A stretch of DNA of 62,989 nt from Rhina ancylostomus (taxonomy: Eukaryota), in NCBI GenBank assembly GCA_030265395.1, contig JARFYF010000058.1, positions 5,626,655 through 5,689,643 of the forward strand, given 5' to 3'. Position numbers and translations under genes: made by a program. The notes under the pieces are model-generated. The model ran no database searches. It had not been told where the DNA came from and worked only from the letters and a program-made list of their open reading frames with translations. The first letter of the stretch is position 1. Every line of letters begins with the position of its first letter. This document shows, piece by piece, positions 3,236-62,989 of this stretch.

Positions 3236-4769
3236 TTTTGATGCTGTGCACTCACTTGCACACAAAGAATGGTCACTTGGGTGAGCAGGGTGAGGCTTAA
3301 CCCATGGAAACATATCCTAGCATGGGTCAGTGAATGAGGGATAAGGGTTAAAACCTGGAAAAAACAACACCTACAATTAAATTAAAAAACTATTCATTGA
3401 GCTTTGTTTATCAAGGCATGAATCTGTTCTGTTTCCATATGTGGTGTGTACTCACTCCCCTCCATATGACAGATATTCCTGTTCTTTCACAAACATGCCT
3501 CTCATTTTCCACAGTCACTGCAAAGGCAACTAACCAATGCCAACACTAATTTTATAGATTTTGACACCATAATCTCACTTGAAATTATCAATACAGCTTT
3601 AAACAAAAAATAATGGACTGCCATTATCACAGAAGACGTGTCTGTCAAATCTGCCTTGATTTATTTGGAAATATAAAATAATGGAAATTATGTTTGAAGT
3701 AACCTCAATGGCATGTGCCAAAACTAATCTTTTTAAGAATATTGTCAAGCTTTTTTTTCAAAGAAAAATCAGTGTGTATATTTGGATCAATGAACAAAGC
3801 ACTTTTGGGGTAAATATTTTGTGAGACTAGGTCTCACTTAAATACATTGGTTATGAATATCCTCAGGAACCTTACTCTTGGATGTTTACTGTAACATTGG
3901 AAGTCAAAGCAACCAGGAAAAAGATCATTTATGCCATTTTTCCAGGGGTTAACAACAGCTCCTGTTCCGAAGTTATTACAAATAATTGGAAGAACTCCAC
4001 ATCTGATCTGTCTATCCTTTAGGTAGGTATTCCAGAGAAGTACTGCATTCCTGGCACCTGACCAAGTCCCTGCTCGACTGGTTTAATAATTGATAGAGGA
4101 ACATAGGTAGATTTCACACAGAAGTAAGCCATTCGGCTTGGGCCTGCTCTTCTATTCAATTAGATTAAGAATGAGCAAGATGGTCTTGGAAAGAGGAGGT
4201 CCTGGTAAACAATCAATGGCCTGCCTTGTTATTGATCAAAATATTTATTCCAGCATCCGAGTTCAACCTTTCCCTTGTTCTTTCCAAAGTGCTCCAGCTA
4301 ATATAAACATCAGTTTTTAGTTTAATGAAGTATTCAGCTGGCCCTGCCAGCCTCTCCTGCCCAGAGTGGACATGGTTCATGCTTTTAAGCAACGTGCATT
4401 CTGACCGACACACCAGCAGTCTTTACATCATGGGGTGGGAGGACAGGTTTCTAGAGCATGTTTGGTGGCCAAATTTTAATGAAACAAAAGCAGAATACCC
4501 CAAATGCTGGAAACTTGAAAGAAAAACAGACAATGCTAAAACTATTTTAGCCAAACAGGTAACATCGTGGAGATAGGGAAAAGGTTATAAGTTCAACAAT
4601 AAGTTACTTTTTATCATTGTCGGAAAAAATTTAAAATTTCATAGTTTTAGCACCATACATAGGGAGACGAAAGGACAAAACAACAAAGCTGTGACAAGAT
4701 GGAAACCAGGAGTAACTTTGCTGCCAACCCATAAATTATTAAAATAATATACAGCAGCTAAATTGATCA

Positions 4770-4866
4770 ATGCACAAAATGCTGGAGGAACTCAGGGGTC
4801 AGGCAGTGTCGATGGATGGAAATGGACAGTCGATGTTTCAGGTCGAGACCCTTCATCTGGACTGGG
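4770..4866 (-). mobile_element. Penelope-like terminal repeat with mutated hammerhead
   Basis: Minus strand cagtc-CAGATGA-a-gggtctcgacct-GAAA-ca-TC-gactg at 4827-4864: perfect stem I but a U4A core change. Confidence 0.65.
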
Positions 4867-5164
4867 TTGATCGTATTGGTTTGTGGTTGAAGCTGTGCTT
4901 TGGTCTATGATTTGATGCTGTTGGTGTCAAACTCCTTCCTTCTCAATTGCTCAGTGATAAGTGGGATTGGGACCCCAGTTATTTCCAGTTGTCTTAAGTG
5001 AACCAGTTTCCATTTAAAAGATTATCAGGAAGGATGATCCATAGTTTGACCTGTGTGGAATTGCAAAGTTTTCTTCATATTTACAGGGTTGTTGTAAAAT
5101 TGAAGCCACCTGAAATGGTCCTGAAATGAAGTGGATTCCATAACGTTCCATAAGATGAGATAAG

Positions 5165-5450
5165 ATATTTATTTATTTATTAGTCACATGTACATCAAAA
5201 CACACAGTAAAGTGCATCTTTTTGCATCACTAAAAATGTGCTGGGGCAGCCCAGAAGTGTTGCCACGCTTCCAGCGCCAACATAGCATGCCCACAGCTCC
5301 TGACCTATACATCTCTTTTGGAATGTGGGAGGAAACCGGACCACCTGGAAGAAACCCACGCAGACATGGAGAAACGTACAAGCTCCTTACAGATGGCAGC
5401 AGGAATTGAACCTGGGTGTCACAGTGTTGAGCAAAGAGCAAGCTCACAGA
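5165..5450 (-). mobile_element. V-domain SINE (HE1-like)
   Basis: ggaatgtgggaggaaaccggaccacctggaagaaacccacgcagacatggagaaacgtacaagctcc is the reverse complement of the V-SINE core. Confidence 0.75.
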
Positions 5451-5861
5451 GAACGCAAATGCAGCACACTGACACAAGACTGGAGTCAGGATACCTTCTC
5501 AGGACATAACACAGGCAGCAACTGGAAGGAATCTTGCCTCGGAGGTCTGAAGAGGAATCCCAACATGAACTGGATCTTCAAAAAGGAATAGAGAACACAG
5601 GACTGCTATAGACTAGACCACACTAAGCAGCTAGGAGCCAAAGGCAGACCAATACTCTGGCAACTAGTGCCAGAGAAACACATCTACTTATGCTAGGCCC
5701 CTGATGGGGCTCAGGTGTGTGTTGTTATGTAATCAGTCCAGCATGGAATCCATGTGCTGTANNNNNNNNNNNNNNNNNNNNNNNNNNNNNNNNNNNNNNN
5801 NNNNNNNNNNNNNNNNNNNNNNNNNNNNNNNNNNNNNNNNNNNNNNNNNNNNNNNNNNNNN

Positions 5862-6235
5862 CAGAGGGTTGTGGACTCAGCCAGCTCCATCACGGGCACA
5901 ACCCTCCCCACCGTCGAGGACACCTTCAAGAGGCGGTGCCTCAAGAAGGTGGCATCCATCACTAAGGGCCCTCACCACCTGGGACATGCCCTCTTCTTGT
6001 TACTACCATCAGGGAGGCAATACAGGAGCCTGAAGACCCACACTCAACGCTTCTTCCACTCCACCATAAGATCTCTGAATGGTGCATGAACCTATGAACA
6101 CTACCTGATTATTCCTTTTCTTTTGCACTATTTATTTATTTTTGTAACATAGTAATTTTATGTCTTGCAAAGTACTGCTGCCACAAAACAACAAATTTCA
6201 CCTTCATATAAATTAGTGACAATAAATTTGATTCT
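5862..6235 (+). mobile_element. Rex/Babar-like LINE 3' fragment
   Basis: Encodes QRVVDSASSITG...HHLGHALFLLLPSGRQYRSLKTHTQRFFHSTIRSLN, then a tail ending gtgacaataaatttgattctga. Confidence 0.8.
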
Positions 6236-8322
6236 GAAGAGACAGCACATGCTGCAGGCGCCTAATGGCCCCCTTCTGTGCTGTAGATTTTTGTGATTCG
6301 GGCAGGTTTGCTTGGCTCTTATGTTAGGGCGGAAACATTCACAATGACAGCGATAGGCTCCAAACGTCTTAAACTTCTCTATGACCTTCTTACCACCATC
6401 TGATCTGCCGCGCATTGGAACCAGTTCCCTATTACCCTCTCACTCCTGCGCAGATGTTAAACAAACTACCTCGCCTTATTGTCTCCAATCTATCCTAATG
6501 AGAATTAAATGTGAATACTAATCTTTCCATTAATTTTAGGAAAAAATAGAAATCTGTAATGCTTATGAAAGATACAGCCCTTAACGGAATTGAGTTTTCC
6601 TAACGTATATGAAAAGTTTTCTCTCCCCAGTATGTACCAAGTCCAAGGCCAAACGTTCTTACCGCCTCACTTGATGTTTAATCCGCATTTCTGATTACAA
6701 TTTATACCCCTGTTCGCCTCAGATTAGATACGGTGCTCCCGTTAGTTAAGTACAAGTTCTCTACGGTGCATAAGATATATTTATCGCTATCCTTCAATGG
6801 TTTGTGTGGTTTCCTCGAATTGGAAATTGTACAACCGGAAAGAGTAGAATTTGAGGAAATGTCAGTCTTGCGAATTTGGGCATAGATTCCATTATTTGGT
6901 TAATGCGAAAGATCTGCTGGAATCCAGCGAACACGTGGAGGATTTTCAACGACTGGGTGAACAAAATATATCTCTTCTGGTTCAGCTGGTCAAAAACAAG
7001 GAATGCAACATCTGTGTAACAGGAGGAAAGAACAGTTTGACTTCAAATTAGAACCCCGAACATCTGGAGCAGCCAAGCATTGCTCGGACAGATCCTTGTT
7101 CATACTGGTTTGAAACGTCACGATTTTTTGCTCTGCATCAAACTAGAAAAATACACACAAGTCGTGTGTTTAAATGGGTTTGCAATCTCTTGCATTCTGA
7201 TTAACCATAAATCTCTAACATTTCTCTGTCAGATTGTAATTGGTGCCGTAGTTTAGTCTTTTTTTCTGGTTGAATNNNNNNNNNNNNNNNNNNNNNNNNN
7301 NNNNNNNNNNNNNNNNNNNNNNNNNNNNNNNNNNNNNNNNNNNNNNNNNNNNNNNNNNNNNNNNNNNNNNNNNNNGTCTTTTTTTCTGGTTGAATCCACA
7401 GTCCTACCCAGTAAAATGAACTGTTGTTAACAGTGTTACCAACTCTGGCTCGTTGCAAAAGATAATCTTTCTTTTATCTCTCTCTCAAAAACAACCGGAC
7501 ATTCCTGATTTATTCTGCGAAGAGTGTCAAACTTTAACGAAAGATTTGCAATCTATTTTTGCCCTCTCGAAACTGCCCCTACTCCCCAGCGTTGAGAGTT
7601 CGGATATAAATGTTTAGTCTTAAAATAATCGAAAAATTGAGTGGGGATTCGGTCACATAAAACAATCCCACGGAATAATAAAGAGCAGCAGTCTTGTGAC
7701 GCAGTCACAGAGGAGATGGTGTTTAGTTTCTCCTACAAGGCGAGTTAGCTGTTCTACCCCACCTGAAAGCATCTTCTTCCATACTCAGAGGACCGCAGTT
7801 CACATTCACGGTTAGGCCATCTCAGAGTTTGTATAAAATGAAATGCTCTCCTATTCTTTCATAGACTGGCATGATCTCAATCCAATCCATGGATGACCGT
7901 GGTGAATTAGACGCTGGCGTGTAACTATAGGTAACGCCAATGCGGTGTATTTATTCCAATAGAACGGTTAAACTTTCCAGCTTTCAATATTGCCTGTTTC
8001 ATATTGTGCATTGTTTCCATTACATCTTTCATTATAAAGAACAATTCTTGTTTTAATTTACAGAAACCGATTTGAAATGTACGGTGCACCTTTTCATTAA
8101 AAAAAAACGTTCTCTGAAACCACAATAAAAACCAGCATTGAATAATAAATCCTACCGATACCGAGCCCTCTCGCTTCTATATTGTGTACATTAGGGAGGG
8201 GAAATGCATTATTTAGCATACATTTAGATTTAGAATATTCTCTGGAATATGGAATTTTATTTTGAATCCAGTGTATTGTTTTTACAAAATGAAATGCCCA
8301 GGGTATGTTGCCAGCATCGATG

Positions 8323-8550
8323 GTAACCATGGCGACTCTCCAGAAAGGTGTATTATACACAGAGCTTGACGGTACAGTTGGCTGCCTCCTGCCACTGAAT
8401 CTATTGCTTTTTCAACGAAGCCTGGTGAACGGCCCTCGGTGGCTTTTGTTTCTCATTCGTGGCCTTGCCCCGCGCCCTACATTCTGGATCTAAATAGAGT
8501 ACCGTTCCCGGGGATGTTTGTAACAATAATATCCGCCCCTACCCGCCCTG
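8323..8550. promoter_or_regulatory. Promoter-like element: RFX X-box plus GC-boxes
   Basis: GTAACCATGGCGAC at 8323-8336 fits the X-box GTNRCC-N(0-3)-RGYAAC with one mismatch; CAGTTG (MYB-like) near 8374; two CCGCCC near 8532-8548; CpG retained locally. Confidence 0.45.
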
Positions 8551-9464
8551 GGCAGTATATTATCTTCAACCGACGTTCGGCACCATTCGATTTATCCTCA
8601 AAATTTCGATTCTCCCCCCCCCCCAAAAAAAAATGAAATACAGATTGNNNNNNNNNNNNNNNNNNNNNNNNNNNNNNNNNNNNNNNNNNNNNNNNNNNNN
8701 NNNNNAAATGAAATACAGATTGATTTGGAGATGCCTTATTCACACATGCACCAGTGTTATTGATTCTTCTCTCTCTCCCGTGTCAGTTGCGCCCAATCCC
8801 CCATTCGTTTCCAAGCCTTCCACCCTCCTGGCGTGGTTTTCCCATCATTATCCCCATGGCCGGGCGACTGCCCCTTCTACGGAGAGAAGCTTTATTCCCT
8901 CAGTGACCCAGTATTCAGAATCGGATTCGCATCGCCCGATTGATAATAGTCTTCATTGACATGGTCTTGGTGTGGTGAAAATGGTAATCCGGATGTCAAC
9001 TGAATATAATACAACACGTCTTTTAATACAACCCTCCTGTTAACCAAGTCTGGGTCAACTGTGGGAGTGCGGTGCTCGGTTCACAGGATGCTTGCGTCTC
9101 TGGCCAACCCCAAAATTTCAATTGAACCCTTTGTGACCTCAAGAGGTCGCAACGTTCTTTGCAGCCAGTGTACAACTTTCTAAAGTGGACTGTTGCAAAC
9201 TCAGGCACTGATGCACTTCCTGAAAATCAGGTGAAAATGCAAAGCAAGAGTGCCTGAAATCCGAAAATGACGGTAACATTCTTAATAATAGAACCCAGAG
9301 AGCTTGCTGCGTTGAAGCCTTCCAGCCACTGAATGACATGTTCTGTATCTTCAACATCCTTTTCTTAAATTTCGTCCCTTGAAAACTTCGTCTCCAACCA
9401 GCGTACAATGTACAATCTCTAAATGAGGCGATATTATGTTACCCATCTCTATTCCTTTCAAAAC

Positions 9465-11380: not shown

Positions 11381-25434
<14,054 letters not shown>

Positions 25435-46764: not shown

Positions 46765-46935
46765 GGAAATTCTCAGCAGGTCAGGCAGCGTCTGTGGAGA
46801 AAGAAACAGAACAGTCATCAATATTGATAAAAGGCTATCGACCTGAAATGTTAACTTGATTCTCTCTTCATAGATCCTGGTCTGCTGAGAGTGTCCATTA
46901 TTCTGTTTTTTTAAACAGATATCATCTGCGGATTT
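46765..46935. mobile_element. Inverted pair of Penelope-like terminal repeats, degenerate
   Basis: ctcagcaggtcaggcagcgtctgtggagaaagaaac followed by ttgataaaaggctatcgacctgaaatgttaac...tctgctgagag. Confidence 0.55.
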
Positions 46936-47489: not shown

Positions 47490-47905
47490 CACGGGCTCTG
47501 TCTACACTTCGCTCTGCCTTGGGAAAACAGCCAACAGTATCAAAGATCCCACCTCCCGGCCATTCTCTCTGCACCCCCCCCCCATCGGGCAGAAGATACA
47601 AAAACTTGAAAACACGCACCACCAGGGTCAAGGACAACTTCCATCCCGTTGTTATAAGACACTTGAACGTAGGATAAAAATGAACTCTTGCTCTCACAAT
47701 CTGCTTCGTCGCGGCCCTCCCACTTTATTGTTTGCCTGCACTGCACTTTCCCTGTAACTAACACAATATTCTGCATTCTGTTATTGTTTTTCCTTTGTAC
47801 TACCTCGATGTACTGATGTTTTGAAATGATCTGTATGGGTGGCTTGCAAAACAAAGTTTTCCACTGTGTCCCGGTACACGTGACAATAATAAACCAATTA
47901 CCAAT
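47490..47905 (+). mobile_element. Rex/Babar-like LINE 3' fragment
   Basis: CLGKTANSIKDPTS...; ccatcgggcagaagatacaaaa...gtgacaataataaaccaattacc tail. Reverse tail fragments also near 49945-50055 and 55395-55480. Confidence 0.8.
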
Positions 47906-48699
47906 TAGTGTCAGCTGTGGAAAAGTTTCTCTGCTTTTATCACACTCGATATCACACGCCCGTGTACACCTGACAATATACATCAGGTTATTAGACAACA
48001 AGGTTCGCAACATGTAGGGACCAGAACTTGCACGTCATGCAACGGCTGACATGAACAAAGTTAGCTTTATTCATAGTCTACATTAAAGAGTTAATTTGTG
48101 GAACAAGGGCGAAAAGGCGAGTTGGTTCCTCGCTTGCTTGATGTGGCCTTTATCCTTCTTTCGGAGCTTCCGGGTGTAATATGAATGCGAGCCAGGGCAC
48201 AGTTGACAGAGATCCTGGAAACCCCGTAAAGCTCTTGCAGTCTGGGGTTCGAGAAAGTAACAACAGGCACTACAGTGGAATTAGGAGCTCGAGTGTGAGA
48301 ATTTAAAATTAGGGTACATTTATAGCAAGTCCAGTTGCTTTTGGTGAAAGAAAGGGAGGCCGACTTGGACCCGAATGTACACAGGACTTGCCCTGAATCT
48401 TGAATTCTGTACTTTGTTTTAAATACTTCCGAAACATCAAAGCAGCGCCAATCATTTAATCACGTGCTCGGCAGTCTGACGACGTGAATTTCTGGGGCAA
48501 CACACACACAATGCTGGAGGAACTCAGCAGGTCAGGCAGCACCGATGAATTTTGCAGTCAGGGTTATCAATCAAACCGATGCTGTCATTTACAGGCGCTC
48601 AGACCGTGGGTGGACGATGTATGCTTGTTTAAATTAACACATAAGTGTAGGGCGGGGTCGTTGTTTGGGGAGAATAACATTAGCTGTGGCTCACTGAAC

Positions 48700-48905: not shown

Positions 48906-49037
48906 ATCACAGAAACACTCCACTTGGTATTATTAGACTTTTGTTTATGCTAAGGTGACATTCTCTCTTAATGGGCTCCGGCTTGAAGCTGAATACGTAC
49001 TGATTTTTTACATTATAATCCTGATCTTCAAGCATGG

Positions 49038-49165
49038 AGACAAGAGACTGCAGATGCTGGAAGTCTGGAGCAACACACATTCTGGAGGAACTCAGCGGGT
49101 CAGGCAGCATCTATGGAGGGAAATGAACAGTCGATATTTCTGGTCGAGACCTTTCATCAGGACGC
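49038..49165 (-). mobile_element. Penelope-like terminal repeat with hammerhead motif
   Basis: Minus strand gtc-CTGATGA-a-aggtctcgacca-GAAA-ta-TC-gactg at about 49128-49163. Confidence 0.65.
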
Positions 49166-51589
49166 TTAGTTACTCTTCAAGCATTACCGTATGGTTTCGA
49201 AAGCACATCGGGGTTTAATGGAAAAGAAACCCTTTCCTTGCACAGTCAGGGGACTCTCTGTTAACACATCTTCACAGANNNNNNNNNNNNNNNNNNNNNN
49301 NNNNNNNNNNNNNNNNNNNNNNNNNNNNNNNNNNNNNNNNNNNNNNNNNNNNNNNNNNNNNNNNNNNNNNNNNNNNNNNNNNNNNNNNNNNNNNNNNNNN
49401 NNNNNNNNNNNNNNNNNNNNNNNNNNNNNNNNNNNNNNNNNNNNNNNNNNNNNNNNNNNNNNNNNNNNNTGTTATTGTTATAATGCAAATAGCGGTTTGT
49501 CCGACCAATCAACTAACAGTGGTATAAAATTATTGTTTTCCTCTGGCAATGCCGCAGTTTCAAACCTCGGGAGCTTCACAATATATTTTGCATTTTTTTA
49601 AAGGAAGTGTTTTAAAAATAAACCGGAAGTACACCTGAAGGTTCATATTAACTATTGACCAACAGTCTTCACTCTTTTCGGTGGAACCATTCCGAAATTC
49701 GACGGTGCCTTGCCAGTTTATTTTGGATAACATGTGAAAATTATCCCAGCTGCCTCATCAGACCAGGGATTTGTAAAATCCTCTGGGTAACAACGTACTG
49801 GACTCCGACATTCATGGCCAGTTACTTGGAATCAAGCTGATACCTGTCCCCAAATCCTTCTCTTTGGTATTTAAAGGATGTTTGTGCTCTTTATGAGCAA
49901 CTAAACCTCTGTATCTGTATACCGCTAAGTGTAAACATAAAGAAGGTAAATTGGTAAATCGGTTCATTATTGTCACATTTACCGAGGTACAGTGAAAGGT
50001 TTGTCTCACGTACCGTTCATACAGATGATCCATTACAACAGTGCATTGAGGTAGTAAGAACTGCCCATTTGCTCATAGTAAGCTCTCACAGAGGCTCAAA
50101 GAACATTGCAGTAAGTACATGAAACCTACATTATTAAGTAGGAAATATAGTGAGGTGAAATTAGAAACAAAAACAAGTAATAGCAGATAAAAAGGCTGTT
50201 CTATCCGTTGTCAGCGACGCTTGGACCACCCTGCCGAGTGTTCCACTTACATAGCTGGTATAAGTACCAGCGACAAAGAATCCTGCAAGCTAACCGCACT
50301 CCTGTGAGCAATTGGTCCCTAACCGGAGCTCATTTTTTCCTCTATATATTCACACAACATTTGTACTTCCTGATGAATCCTGCCAGGATTGTGGAAACAA
50401 ATAGTTAAGCATTGTGAGAAGGAACTGACTCTACTGGGAATATATTTAATTCGTTTGAAAAATCAGAGGCCTATAATTTCTGCTAAAACATTAATAACAG
50501 CAACTGCTGTGTGACTGTAAAGCTGTCTGTCATGTGAGGAAGGCACGTTTGCGACCTCTGTCAACAGATACACACATCCACACACTTTACCGTATGCATG
50601 AATATGTGTGCATAAGATCTATAGAAGTTACATTTGTTCTTGTTACAAAATCATCATATTATGAGCAGGAATATAATATGGAAAATTATACCTCGTGATT
50701 TCCTTGTATCGTGCATTTATATGTGCGCGATTAAATGAATTATTTTAGTACTTCGTCATATCTAGCATTGTAAACATGTTGAATTTCAAAATAACACCAA
50801 ATATTTTCCCATCAAAAAAAGTAACCAAAGATCACAATGAATTCTGAGAGCTAGCTTTCTTTGTGGCAAAGCATTTCCCCAATTCTAATCCAGAACCGGC
50901 GTGTAGGTATTAGGCACCGTACTTGCAGATTCTCAGCACGTTAGACTATTTAATAGCTGCCCAGGAAATTCCATGTTCGGCGGGTCCATCGGGATAGCTT
51001 ATTACAAATTCACATAAATCCATCTCAACTTGCTGAGCAGACCAAACCAATCCATTCTTTCCCCCCAAACAAACTGTTTTAAATTGCTGCTGAGTCATTG
51101 AATGTAATTTAAAACCGAGACTGTGAAATAATGCGCCACGTCAGTACAGGATGTATAATAACACCTCTGCTGAGTTATCAAGGTCGCCGTTTCCAATGTA
51201 CCTCAATCAAACCAGCGAGTGCCGGTACGGAGCCATACATCAACGCATGGGGAAACATGTCCATCTGCGTTACGGTGCCTGTTATAAGTCATACTATTTA
51301 TAGGTCCAAACATTATTTTTCTTTGTGAAAACTAGCTTTTCTGATTCAACTTAGGCCAAGTGATGAATATAGAAAGGCTTTCATTTATGTTACTTTTAAA
51401 GCCTCCTCAACTTGCCCGGAAGGAATTTACCACAGCATTATTTTAAAGTTCAATGAAAGTAAGAACTGCCCATTTGCTCACAGTAAGCTCTCACAGAGAG
51501 CCATGAAGTAAAGGATCAGACGAACTGATCCGGATGTTGGTTGAAGGGTGAATGGTATCGGAGAGAACAAAACGCAAGGCAAAATAAGA

Positions 51590-51682
51590 AGTGCTCTGAT
51601 GGAAGGCCATCGATCTGAAACGTTAAATCTGTTTCTGTCCCCATCGGTGCTGCCTGGACTAAGTTCTTCCCAGCAATTCCTG
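51590..51682 (+). mobile_element. Penelope-like terminal repeat, degenerate hammerhead
   Basis: ctgatgg-aaggccatcgatct-gaaacgtt-aaatctgtttctgtccccatcggtgctgcc. Confidence 0.5.
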
Positions 51683-54669: not shown

Positions 54670-55150
54670 AAAGATGTGAAGTTGTTCACTTTGGAAGGGA
54701 ATGTGAAAAGTATTCTAATTGAAAAAGAGAAAGATTTGCAGAACAATGGGGGTTTAGGGTCTTCATATATGAAACACAGGAAGCTGGTATACAGTGCGGC
54801 AAGTAATCAGGAAGGCTAATGGAATGGTAACTTTTATTTCAAGGGCGTTGGAGTATAAAAGTAGGAAGAATTACTGCAATTATGCAAGGCACCAATGAGA
54901 CCACATCCAGAGTACTGTGAGGCAGTGTCAATCCTCTGACTTAAGGGAAGGTATATTATAATTGAAGAAGGTTCAGAGAAGGTTGATTTCAAGCATGGGG
55001 GAATTATCTAATGAGGAAAGGGTAAGAAAATTGGATCTGTATACAATGAAATTTAGAAGAATGAACGGCGATTTTATTGAAACATTCAAGTTTCTTAAGG
55101 GGCAGAACAAAGTAAATGCTTGGAGGATATCTACTCTCATGGAAAAGAGT
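54670..55150 (+). mobile_element. CR1-type LINE ORF2 fragment
   Basis: CEVVHFG...RKANGM...RPHPEYC...KKVQRRL...RRMNGDFIETFKFLKG. Confidence 0.8.
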
Positions 55151-55289
55151 TGGGCCTGTTCTTATTTCTTGTGGTTTTATGCTCTTAAATATCTAAAATA
55201 TTGTCCAGATCCATTACACTTTATTTGATAGAACTAAAATCACAGAGATTGATTTCTGTCACAGACTCCATTCCCGAACAACTGACGAA

Positions 55290-55890: not shown

Positions 55891-57590
55891 TTANNNNNNN
55901 NNNNNNNNNNNNNNNNNNNNNNNNNNNNNNNNNNNNNNNNNNNNNNNNNNNNNNNNNNNNNNNNNNNNNNNNNNNNNNNNNNNNNNNNNNNNNNNNNNNN
56001 NNNNNNNNNNNNNNNNNNNNNNNNNNNNNNNNNNNNNNNNNNNNNNNNNNNNNNNNNNNNNNNNNNNNNNNNNNNNNNNNNNNNNNNNNNNNNNNNNNNN
56101 NNNNNNNNNNNNNNNNNNNNNNNNNNNNNNNNNNNNNNNNNNNNNNNNNNNNNNNNNNNNNNNNNNNNNNNNNNNNNNNNNNNNNNNNNNNNNNNNNNNN
56201 NNNNNNNNNNNNNNNNNNNNNNNNNNNNNNNNNNNNNNNNNNNNNNNNNNNNNNNNNNNNNNNNNNNNNNNNNNNNNNNNNNNNNNNNNNNNNNNNNNNN
56301 NNNNNNNNNNNNNNNNNNNNNNNNNNNNNNNNNNNNNNNNNNNNNNNNNNNNNNNNNNNNNNNNNNNNNNNNNNNNNNNNNNNNNNNNNNNNNNNNNNNN
56401 NNNNNNNNNNNNNNNNNNNNNNNNNNNNNNNNNNNNNNNNNNNNNNNNNNNNNNNNNNNNNNNNNNNNNNNNNNNNNNNNNNNNNNNNNNNNNNNNNNNN
56501 NNNNNNNNNNNNNNNNNNNNNNNNNNNNNNNNNNNNNNNNNNNNNNNNNNNNNNNNNNNNNNNNNNNNNNNNNNNNNNNNNNNNNNNNNNNNNNNNTCTA
56601 AATACCTAGGCAGTGCAAGTGACGAAAGGAGTTGATACAACTCCCGTGTTACAAAAAAAATGGTTCAGAAGCACAATATTGGGCTAAGGATTAGATACTT
56701 CCTCTGGTGTGCCTTCCTGGACGCACTGTCTATGCCCGAAGCGTCTATTTGCCCGAAGCTACAAATCAATTTTGAAAAAGACCTAAATACTGGTATCTGC
56801 AGCTGGGGAGGATACAATGAACACCAGCTCCCAATCTGACAAATAATTTCCATCCATAACAGTTATCTTAGCCAAACATAATAGTTTACGCAATAACAAG
56901 GTCAGCTGAAACGTACAAAACTTAGCATGTTAAAATGTTCCTAAATAATTCGCTTTTCCAAATGCTTTACAAATAAATTATTTAAAGTTCTTTTTTCAAA
57001 TACCGAACACTATCAATACTCTAATATATTGTAAATGACTGAAACCAATATATATTGGAAGCTCTTGATTCCATACGAGACCTGCAAATGCTCCCACAAT
57101 ATATGTCACCGTGTTTCTAAAGTTTCAAACTTACCGTGAACTAAGGGCTTTCTCTTGTTCTAATCTACATATTTAAAAAAAACAATTTTAAGGAATGATC
57201 GTTTGAATTTTAATACAAACGTGTAATGCTGATCTTGTTTCCCTGTAGATTTGTGGTGAATATCTGGTGACATCTTAATAGCCTCGATAGTCACGGGACA
57301 TTTGACTGGCTTGGTTAAGCGAACAGTCTTGCCCCAGTGGGACTTGTAGAGCGGAGCTTGCAAATTCAAACTATTTTAACGGTCGGGCGAAAACTAGCGG
57401 TGTTAAAATCATTGAAAAGGACTTTCAGGTACTGACTTGGGTTATAGAATTAGCCCCTGTTTCAAACTGCAGGTATTTCTTCTCAAATAGACCAATCTCA
57501 TTTCATCAATTAGAGAATATGGTTTTGAGAATGTCGTCTTTACTGGCGAAATGTGGCGTTAACAGTGAAAAACCCTCCACGATTATTTTC

Positions 57591-57628
57591 CATTCCTGAT
57601 GAAGGGTCTCGACCCGAAACGTCGACTG
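57591..57628 (+). ncRNA. Minimal type I hammerhead ribozyme motif (Penelope pLTR type)
   Basis: cattc-CTGATGA-a-GGGTC-tc-GACCC-GAAA-CG-TC-gactg: complete catalytic core, 5-bp stem II, stem I with 4 of 5 pairs, palindromic ACGU mini stem III, predicted GUC cleavage after 57623. Confidence 0.75.
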
Positions 57629-57723
57629 TCCATTTCCCTCCACAGAAGCAGTCTGACCCATTGAGTTCCTCCAGCATTTTATGTGTTGCTCCAGATTCCA
57701 GCATCTGAAGTGTCTCTCGTGTC
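57591..57723 (+). mobile_element. Penelope-like terminal (pLTR-derived) repeat, best-preserved copy
   Basis: Hammerhead motif followed by ...ccacagaagcagtctgacccattgagttcctccagcattttatgtgttgctccagattccagcatctg; homologous to copies at 4770 and 49038. Confidence 0.65.
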
Positions 57724-58699
57724 ACGATTATTTTCATTATTTTCGCTAATTTCAGATTATGAAATGGTTCCAATATAAGAAAAGGCCGCAAATCCTAGCT
57801 GTAGGCAGCATCATCAATTATCTGTAGAGTCATGTCTGGCGGAGTTGCCAGGGAATGCAGTCGGAACAGCTGTTAACTGAATGACCCGCCTTTGGAAAGA
57901 GTGAATCTAATTACTAAATATCCCCACAAGTAATCTGAACTCACGTCATCAGTTTTGGATGCATGAATCATTACATTAGGCGTATTGTTAAACCCGTTGT
58001 TCCAGCGGAGTTGACAACTAGTTCACGTACAACCTCTCAAAGTCTCCACGGTTCAAATGTCTCCAGTCTTTGATTCTCGGATATTCTACTTTTTGTGAAA
58101 CTTCATGCTTCCCTCATGACAGAGATGAGAGCATCCCGGCAGAAAGCAGAAATTAAACCATGGGGCATATTTTAAACAAAAGACTAATTCACAGTGGAAG
58201 CCCCAAGATCAACTCTTTCTGCTGACTTGCCTTTCACACGGACTGCCGCCGATGTTGNNNNNNNNNNNNNNNNNNNNNNNNNNNNNNNNNNNNNNNNNNN
58301 NNNNNNNATGATAAAAATCGGCTCGGGTGCTTCAAACCGTTTATTCCACAGCGCAAAGCAGATCAAAGGAATCAGGGGCGAAGATAACTTGGGGAAGAAA
58401 ATCACTGAGTTCCCGTTTCGGAGCTTCTCTGCGGGATGAGGTGAGAAGTGAGAGCGGGTAATTGGACAGGGGATGGACAGCTTCAATGCTTTCTGGCTTA
58501 TATCTTCACGGGGAAATGCACCTACAAACCCTGAGCCTAATGTCTCCACAGTGAGGTAATTTAGATACAATGCTAACCGTGTTTATGGTAAATTGCATTT
58601 GATCTTCGAAAGCTGAAATATCTGATGGAATTGACTCTTCCCCCATTTAATCCTTCGTCGTCTAACCCCAGCAATTCTCTACCCAGCAGCACAGAGGCA

Positions 58700-60704: not shown

Positions 60705-61010
60705 AGATCACAAGATCACAAGATAAGGGAACAGAAGAAGACCATTCGGCCCATCGAGCCTGCTCCATGGAAATGGAAATGAGAGGGAGAAGTGGCGGGT
60801 GGGGGGGGGGGNNNNNNNNNNNNNNNNNNNNNNNNNNNNNNNNNNNNNNNNNNNNNNNNNNNNNNNNNNNNNNNNNNNNNNNNNNNNNNNNNNNNNNNNN
60901 NNNNNNNNNNNAACACTCTCCATCAACAGCACATCCTTCCTAAGAAAAGTGGCCCAGAACTGCACACAATATTCCAAATGAGGCCTCAACAGTGCCCCAT
61001 AGAGCTTCAT
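60705..61010 (-). mobile_element. CR1-type LINE fragment spanning a gap (another tail near 61495-61670)
   Basis: [31 protein letters not shown]; tail gaccattcggcccatcgagcctgctcc. Confidence 0.85.
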
Positions 61011-61241
61011 CAATACAATCAAGAAAGTGAAGTATAAGGGTGCGGGGAAAGAGCAGGCAAGTATGACCAAGAAGGTAGCTGCTTCAAACAATCAGCATTG
61101 ACAGGGTGGACAATGTAATCTATTTCTGTGCTGTGCGATTCAATGATTACAGGAGTCACTGGGCATTAACAATAAAACAGGCAGCGAGGTTCACTTTGAT
61201 GCACTTGGGTCGTGGTTACTCTGCCCTCCCCCGACCCTTTC

Positions 61242-61390: not shown

Positions 61391-61490
61391 AAAGTTCTGA
61401 TAACAAGCTATTGACCTGAAGCATTAACTTTGTTTCTCTCTCCACAGATTCTGTCTGATCTGCTGAGTATTTCTGCCATCTTGTGCTTTA
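61391..61490 (+). mobile_element. Penelope-like terminal repeat, degenerate hammerhead
   Basis: aaagtt-ctgataa...gacct-gaagcatt-aacttt followed by gtttctctctccacagattctgtctgatctgctgagtattt. Confidence 0.5.
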
Positions 61491-62989
61491 AACCATTGAA
61501 CACAGAACATAGAACACGGCAGCACAGTACAGGCCCTTCGGCCCACAACGTGGTGCCGACATTNNNNNNNNNNNNNNNNNNNNNNNNNNNNNNNNNNNNN
61601 NNCCCATCTTTCTATCGTTCATGTATTTATCTACGAGTCTCTTAAATGTCCCTTTCCAACCGATTTCCAATATCCACTGGGCTCTCTTTCAAATTAGAGT
61701 GGAGATGTGTGGACAAGTTACAGCATAATTTCCTTTAATTCTGTTTTCTTAGTGTGCACCACATCAGTACAATATCCAATGCAAACTGACAACAATGCGC
61801 TGCGAATTGTCGTGAACTAACAAACCAGCAGGCCAGTGTAAGTGGGTCTCACAACGCTTGTGCAGACATAAAGACAGCTCACGCCGGCAGATCACTTGAT
61901 AAGGCCCACAGCATGGGTTCCATCATGTGGTATATCACTTGGGGGCTGGAGCACTGGTTACGTNNNNNNNNNNNNGCCTCTGCAGTTTTTTTTTGCGTGC
62001 TGTAACTTTGGTCATCTAATGGTAAGCTTTTATTTACAGCGGTAGAGGTCGGAATTGGGAGGCTCACGTTAATTTTAGTGGAGGTGACAAAATATTCTGC
62101 ACTGAGAGAGTGAAAACCCCCTTCCTATTCCACGTTAACTCTCAGTTCAGAATTTGAGACTTTCCGGAAGACCACGAATAAATAACAGGAGGATGCAGTG
62201 GAGGCTGGGGGAGTGATTGCGGGGTAAGATCCCCTCTTCATAAGAGTTTCAATTAATATTAAAATCAAATTGTTCAATGGAGAATGCGAAACCATCAATA
62301 GCAGTGCATGCACCTTATTTATTAGATTATATTTTCCAACTAGTTAAGAAATACATTATACAAATGATTCTTTTTGTGTGCACACAACTATGTTAGTTCG
62401 TCTTTTATTGACAAGCATCAAGTAACCAAGCTGACAGGCTGAACGATTGTTGTTTGTGTTCAGCACTTAGAGTAAATGAGATGGATGACTTGTAATGAAA
62501 TGATCTGTACATTTATTTTACAAACTGCAGGCATTTTGAGGTATGGTGGTGGGTCCAGTAATATTCACCAAGACAGCCATAATGACGATTCATGATGCAG
62601 CACGTAGCAAAATGCCTGATGCGTGAACAGGGCATTGAAACTGCGTGACATTCAAATAGACGAGCATGGCCAGATCGCTGTTAACATAACGCATTTACAT
62701 TGAGAACGTATGAAGCTGAATGAAACATTTTCAGAACGCCAGCACACAGTTTGTATTGAATCATATCAACAACGTCTCAAATACAATATGAACAAAAGAC
62801 TGGAGATTGGAGGGCGAATTTTACTCCAAATGTAATGTTGCAGTGATATTCCAGCTGAGATTCCGATTAAACTATCTAGCCGCCAATGTATGTGAATGTT
62901 CTAATTCTAGTGGGGTGGGGAACCCCGAGAAATATTCGAGCATTTGAACCTGCCCCCCCCCCCCACTCCTATTCAATCCGCGCATCAAG

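Follow-up and report, generated by a model that had tools for sequence, protein, structure and literature searches.

A hammerhead-like motif in Rhina ancylostomus heading a 132-bp insertion that is probably an end piece of a Neptune-type Penelope-like element

The insertion and its hammerhead-like motif

The window (the whole stretch of 62,989 nucleotides analyzed) carries a hammerhead-like motif at positions 57591-57628 of the plus strand, at the head of a 132-bp insertion that is flanked by direct repeats. The insertion was assigned to the pseudo-LTR (pLTR) of a Penelope-like element (PLE). The features are as follows.

57578..57590, plus strand: left copy of an exact 13-bp direct repeat, AT-rich, read as a target-site duplication
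57591..57722, plus strand: insertion, probably the hammerhead and tail module of a Neptune-type PLE pLTR, subfamily A1, assigned by homology to relatives
57591..57595, plus strand: 5' arm of stem I, in which T at 57593 disrupts the third pair from the core
57596..57603, plus strand: C3-U4-G5-A6-U7-G8-A9 (CUGAUGA, 57596-57602) and an extra A (57603) before G10.1
57604..57615, plus strand: stem II, 4 bp with a CUCG loop and the closing pair G10.1-C11.1, from folding and covariation
57616..57623, plus strand: G12-A13-A14-A15.1 (GAAA, 57616-57619), palindromic ACGU, U16.1 (57622) and C17 (57623)
57624..57628, plus strand: 3' arm of stem I
57629..57722, plus strand: remaining pLTR module, belonging to the longer of two 3'-end classes (tail present)
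57723..57735, plus strand: right copy of the exact 13-bp direct repeat

Core positions are numbered by the established hammerhead convention, and the predicted cut falls after 57623. When the sequence was re-read, each element that the first-pass annotation had listed for a minimal hammerhead at 57591-57628 was found in its place, including the extra A (57603) between A9 and G10.1 and the palindromic ACGU that replaces stem III. Stem I forms four of five pairs, as had been described, with a U.C mismatch in mid-stem at 57593/57626; at the position equivalent to 57593, 28 of 30 loci with an exact core have G, and the copy studied has T. The 5-bp stem II had to be shortened, since it would close a 2-nt loop; the fold gives 4 bp and the CUCG loop instead. 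The core letters CUGANGA/GAAA/UH in type I order, the reduced palindromic stem III, the extra nucleotide after A9 and the G10.1-C11.1 pair are those of the minimal type I hammerheads of PLEs, for which an extra nucleotide after position 9 has been described (PMC4209133; all papers are cited here for the portions covered).

Rfam hammerhead families were absent at the gathering score in the whole window and at E<=10 in 501 bases. The fold stability of the 38-mer 57591-57628 was like that of shuffled sequences (z -0.34), with the core and not stem I paired in the best fold, so that the evidence for a hammerhead comes from the core letters and the family, and not from the stability of the 57591 copy. 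A strict structural descriptor requiring three contiguous stem I pairs was passed by one motif in 826 kb, and the copy at 57591 failed it. The 33-mer 57594-57626 occurs exactly 74 times in the genome, versus 0 for the reversed control. A family profile found 205 matches in 826 kb and 46 in 314 kb (both samples being arbitrarily chosen stretches of large contigs) and none in reversed DNA, and extrapolation of the profile densities gives a family of about 3-5 x 10^5 fragments per 2.2 Gb. The hammerhead-like motif at 57591-57628 is not a chance occurrence.

The limits of the insertion (57591-57722, 132 bp) and its 13-bp direct repeat were absent from the earlier annotation. The final four letters of the left repeat (57578-57590) equal the element's own upstream sequence as well, i.e. 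microhomology. A flanking repeat is visible in only a minority of family copies: repeats of at least 11 bases flank 7 of 149 other copies, versus 0.13 in shuffled pairings, a count that leaves out the 57591 copy, whose alignment ran into the repeat. The closest relative of the insertion (the best of 40 scored) is only 92% identical, and thus no close daughter copy was seen. Contigs of a related organism bridge both insertion junctions, with 18 of 516 and 9 of 519 letters differing (its unique contigs end within the motif, and two of the 18 differences are unplaceable there), indicating that the insertion is older than that split.

Other family members in the window are:

4754..4868, minus strand: sister stub, with A replacing U4
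19169..19265, minus strand: stub of the older subfamily C
49036..49165, minus strand: sister stub with an 11-bp flanking direct repeat, a decayed core and its 5' end at stem I
51596..51677, plus strand: nearest upstream same-strand relative, 6 kb away, of decayed subfamily C
61393..61494, plus strand: nearest downstream same-strand relative, 3.8 kb away, core broken

A head-to-head pair of old subfamily C stubs was also seen at 46772-46932. A second dispersed repeat, unrelated to the first, has several copies in the window (19410-19944, 47515-47907 and 49949-50093). Short frames at 54962-55228 and 60708-61091 had no Pfam match; we take them to resemble decayed CR1-type LINE ends.

The parent element

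Starting from the best relatives, the sequence was followed in the 5' direction, through about 370 pyrimidine-rich bases, into a GIY-YIG frame and then the thumb of a reverse transcriptase (RT). The GIY-YIG Pfam match was above cut-off in one of four fragments, and RVT_1 was matched in three of seven, with a best E of 4e-6 that lies below the curated cut-off. The loci found by the RT thumb carry, in broken copies, DKG together with the core motifs of the RT in order; a CX4CxxC linker is found in seven loci, and the CCHH residues of the endonuclease are present. Among the 42 thumb loci examined, 22 were too short or N-rich (the module was nevertheless found in four of these), and in 16 of the 20 informative ones a same-strand module follows the thumb at a distance of 1.1-1.5 kb, versus about 9% expected from its density. 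The reading as a Penelope-type minimal type I hammerhead within an abundant repeat was right.

Subfamily types A, B and D were each found on RT-bearing copies. The closest named proteins, from the sharks Stegostoma tigrinum and Chiloscyllium punctatum, show 53-57% identity; that of Stegostoma tigrinum comprises RT thumb and endonuclease and reads on into the same motif, and protein relatives of 870-890 aa contain both RT and GIY-YIG. No intact ORF of the element was found among the loci recovered, nor any solved structure resembling the RT fragment.

Of 30 loci, 27 were informative, and in 16 of these the module, whole or in part, directly adjoins the ORF start on its upstream side. This junction was seen in subfamily B and not in the subfamily of the 57591 copy; in the fuller subfamily B copies, it is the equivalent of 57629-57722 that continues into the ORF start. 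Locus L091:3200-6600 holds a near full-length, broken element in which an inverted pLTR is followed by a hammerhead-bearing pLTR, the ORF start, RT, the linker and the beginning of the endonuclease. Same-strand modules about 1 kb ahead of the ORF (L247, L255, L257) and that of L239 were found to be separate insertions.

Conservation of region 57629-57722 across subfamilies equals that of the stems, and complementary segments lie within it. This region may act as a protein-bound structure.

Adjacent family copies (n=40) are arranged as 32 head-to-head inverted, six direct and two tail-to-tail pairs, and Tandem Repeats Finder detected no array at the 57591 site. The predominance of head-to-head pairs is the inverted structure of Penelope insertions, and not the tandem array that defines retrozymes; neither a tandem of at least two consecutive hammerhead units nor independence of a coding element, as in non-LTR retrozymes, was found. 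The description of the repeat as non-autonomous and retrozyme-like was not supported: the repeat forms the end of an RT and GIY-YIG element that was autonomous in the past, and direct tandems make up only six of 40 adjacent pairs.

The family has a Penelope-type RT followed by a C-terminal GIY-YIG domain in one ORF, a linker of the CX2-5CxxC type with CCHH, and pLTRs with a partial tandem, an inverted 5' partner and an optional tail, as do Neptune elements with endonuclease (EN+). The linker and CCHH match those of Neptune and Nematis (PMC8557442); the Neptune assignment is based on motifs, and Nematis shares the linker. The hammerhead, in turn, is located in the pLTR of an element with RT and endonuclease, as in PLE minimal hammerheads. 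These findings argue strongly (at a probability of about 0.88) that the motif heads a 132-bp end piece of a Neptune-type PLE, probably inserted by the element's own RT and endonuclease, and that the solitary copy is likely inert.

The PLE minimal hammerhead class has been published since 2014. The motifs of Cervera and De la Pena (2014, PMC4209133) share with the present one the type I core, short stem I, extra nucleotide at 9/10.1, G10.1-C11.1 pair and palindromic 15.2-16.2, and they likewise number in the thousands, are mostly single with some close opposite-strand pairs, and are linked to an RT and GIY-YIG ORF. Unlike theirs, stem II has 4 bp here. The fragments in the current study are far more numerous than the 4,000-9,000 motifs given for coelacanth and frog, although intact motifs were counted there. 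Cartilaginous fish are not named in the covered portions of that paper, two of its supplementary files included. The family was not described in the literature searched on hammerheads or Penelope in sharks and elasmobranchs; Repbase and Dfam, which lay outside that search, probably hold it.

With Neptune EN+ PLEs (Arkhipova 2006, described in Craig et al. 2021, PMC8557442) the family shares the C-terminal GIY-YIG with CCHH, the CX2-5CxxC linker and DKG, as well as pLTRs, an inverted 5'-truncated partner and an optional tail, but here no intact ORF was recovered and the assignment is by motifs. The Poseidon element PAc of Anolis carolinensis (Frangieh et al. 2024, PMC11167929) is alike in having a hammerhead at the pLTR-ORF junction, two 3'-end classes, an AT-rich target with ATT, and uncut RNA as template. 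PAc belongs to the Poseidon clade and was tested in vitro. In PAc, stem II holds the start of the ORF; in the 57591 motif, by contrast, the frame opened by the ATG of the core runs for only about 20 codons. Animal non-LTR retrozymes (Li, Clavereau, Pollet 2026, bioRxiv 10.64898/2026.07.22.740005) share the type I hammerhead, pLTR origin and short noncoding copy; they are defined as tandems of at least two consecutive hammerhead units, whereas the 57591 copy is solitary and its family mostly solo or inverted.

Origin of the short copies and the role of cleavage

Most relatives are short copies whose 5' and 3' ends fall at preferred places, and head-to-head joining is frequent among them. Of 59 A-type copies taken without selection, 29 had their 5' end within -9 to +7 of C3, 12 ran beyond -30, and two started at the cut site (the ends come from profile envelopes, with a precision of a few bases, and in a few cases an inverted partner has enlarged the envelope). 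Across 58 short copies the match to the family was 0.69 at -3 and 0.50 at -4, and had fallen to background by -7. The 3' ends form two groups, at about +80 to +105 and +120 to +129, resembling an optional tail, and the 57591 copy belongs to the longer one. The idea that the repeat is ribozyme-processed was not supported, because many copies begin at stem I (29 of 59) and few at the cut site (2 of 59), which indicates that their templates had not been cut and began preferentially at stem I.

The RNA of the element would start close to the base that opens stem I. The element's protein would nick AT-rich DNA and prime reverse transcription internally, about 100-130 bases from the RNA start; nicking and internal priming have been shown in vitro for the anole Poseidon element (PMC11167929). 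Priming at the 5' copy of the internal site, with synthesis to the 5' end of the RNA, would produce stubs from uncut RNA, and priming on both nicked strands would yield head-to-head pairs. Internal priming is, we infer from the anole work, the simplest reading of how the stubs arose.

Some lineages have changed cores. In the cluster of the 57591 copy, A replaces U4 in 14 of 18 unselected copies (window 4754-4868 on the minus strand, L003, L185), and 19 of 25 D-type copies (e.g. L065:2666-2709, L041:464-507) have C at position 9 or C inserted before A9. Since the D-type lineage is linked to an RT-bearing copy, a non-canonical core has been amplified. Nothing relevant on U4A or A9C variants of the hammerhead core was present in the literature searched or in the covered portions of PMC3088659.

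It is possible, although on balance doubtful, that the first base of stem I is the capped 5' end of the RNA, that the stubs are complete cDNAs primed where the internal priming site has its 5' copy, and that cleavage is dispensable in vivo, the hammerhead serving as a 5' decapping switch or a protein-binding fold. The changed-core lineages (U4 to A; C at position 9) were amplified to tens of thousands, and on this reading cleavage would not be needed for transposition in vivo. The RNA start at stem I would then be an Initiator-like YYCAGT.

The 5' boundary might instead be a splice acceptor, in which a pyrimidine tract and CAG end an intron and the stubs derive from spliced RNA, or a site where the polymerase stalls at the hammerhead structure; we regard this as unlikely. 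Long copies do show a pyrimidine tract and CAG at -16 to -3, and in Drosophila virilis Penelope the end of the intron coincides with helix I (PMC4209133; position of the intron, PMC2377424). However, the top-scoring pairs of 79 non-inverted short copies have no common upstream exon, and the enrichment of A at -4 (0.50) and G at -3 (0.69) in short copies would be lost by a cut after AG unless the exon also ended in AG. A splice acceptor or stall alters the mechanism behind the boundary and not the identity of the element.

The greater frequency of short copies with preferred ends over long ones, and the flanking repeats that some of them have of their own, could also point to an independent non-autonomous element (SINE- or retrozyme-like), transcribed alone, cut by its hammerhead, possibly circularized, and mobilized in trans by the Penelope protein. 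Retrozymes derived from pLTRs have been reported in vertebrates, including one chondrichthyan (bioRxiv 10.64898/2026.07.22.740005). This origin is nonetheless very unlikely: direct tandems and arrays are as scarce as described above (6 of 40 pairs; none at the site by Tandem Repeats Finder), RT-bearing copies include types A, B and D, and the short copies retain the whole motif and start at stem I, whereas a template that was cut or circular would give starts at G1.1 or at any position.

Under the preferred reading, as an end piece of a Neptune-type PLE, the 57591 copy is predicted to cleave poorly. Single minimal hammerheads of the PLE class showed no cleavage in vitro, and dimers were weak (PMC4209133); dimer cleavage is also treated by Lunse et al., as cited in PMC6765202. 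The anole Poseidon motif cut only with its own protein, and insertion did not require cleavage (PMC11167929). For the 57591 copy, a hammerhead-like monomer scored -4.0 versus -8.3 kcal/mol for the best fold, and the strand-swapped active dimer -6.9 versus -26.7 kcal/mol, a gap of about 20 kcal/mol; for a natural copy with intact stem I the values were -10.2 versus -12.4 (monomer) and -19.3 versus -34.9 (dimer), in a folding model that leaves out the non-canonical contacts of the core. There is no intact same-strand dimer partner in the window: the core at 61393..61494 is broken, and damage to the core is seen in both of the nearest same-strand relatives (at distances of 3.8 and 6 kb). The stem I mismatch at a conserved pair and the lack of an intact partner nearby make self-cleavage of the 57591 copy after C57623, as had been proposed, unlikely by these models. 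In the source element, cutting after C17 would require a dimer or binding of the element protein.

Taken singly, the 57591 copy is of little consequence, since it is a decayed terminus from a retroelement class already known. Specialists may find the family somewhat useful, as the question of what hammerheads do in PLEs has yet to be settled (PMC8557442, PMC11167929). Its many copies offer in vivo statistics on where the template RNA starts and ends, and its changed-core subfamilies are natural variants for testing whether cleavage matters.

Selection, decay and the near-intact appearance of the copy

Between subfamilies, the majority sequences vary at N7 and H17 as the core allows, and loop II varies. 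Paired changes were seen in the stems, from C-G to U-A at 2.1/1.1 and from G-C to G.U or A-U at 10.1/11.1. In 29 copies picked for the likeness of their flanks to their own subfamily (29 of 36 picked), 79% of stem cells were paired, versus at most 46% in slid controls. The covariation score of these copies was matched by two of 500 shuffles, although related sequences can beat shuffles without structure. Stems I and II are backed by variation between families, as in PLE minimal hammerheads; in stem I, just the inner three pairs are kept across subfamilies, and the mismatch of the 57591 copy is at the third of these. Because the loops vary and the stems show compensatory changes between subfamilies, the motif was probably selected in the source elements.

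Within subfamilies, CpG decay was 34% in the core and 35% in the flanks, and the copies appear to decay neutrally. Non-CpG positions differing from the subfamily majority were fewer in the core (9.7%) than in the flank (14.6%), a gap that runs against pure neutrality. Hidden sub-lineages and the choice of matches that cover the motif may account for the lower core divergence; weak selection on some copies may also contribute. G12, the general base (PMC6155905), is part of a CpG, and in two DNA runs A stands in its place in about 29% and 24% of the depth.

The 57591 copy has no differences in 33 core letters, versus 2-18 in arbitrarily sampled A-type copies, and the 74 exact 33-mers compare with about 15 from a rough neutral estimate based on 23 copies. 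The 33-mer 57594-57626 includes four CpGs. The copy lies in a CpG-rich domain of about 75 kb (window about 6000-62989 and the next 20 kb) with an observed/expected (o/e) CpG of 0.64, mostly 0.5-1.0, and modest G+C. Its own flanks have a CpG o/e of 0.85, versus a genome median of 0.18 and a 99th percentile of 0.47. More generally, the median flank CpG o/e was 0.24 in 30 exact-core loci and 0.20 in 33 sampled copies (p 0.003). The four CpGs of the 57591 copy were likely spared by this domain, in which low methylation is suggested by the base composition. The near-intact look of the copy would accordingly stem from its position in a CpG-rich, probably unmethylated domain and not from selection.

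An intact core, and an insertion shared with a related organism through both bridged junctions, would also be expected of a working self-cleaving ribozyme retained to act on a host transcript in a CpG-rich regulatory domain. We consider this highly improbable. The four CpGs were likely spared by the local CpG-rich state, exact-core loci in general having CpG-richer flanks, and 73 further exact copies exist in the genome. Stem I has lost a conserved pair, the hammerhead folds score poorly versus the best folds, the window holds no intact same-strand partner, and single minimal hammerheads did not cleave in vitro (PMC4209133). Nor was a host gene identified: Pfam showed nothing credible in the 114 open frames scanned, out of 137 of at least 75 aa, and a motif scan for common transcription factors found nothing. 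The CpG-rich domain of about 75 kb resembles the unmethylated valleys around developmental genes.
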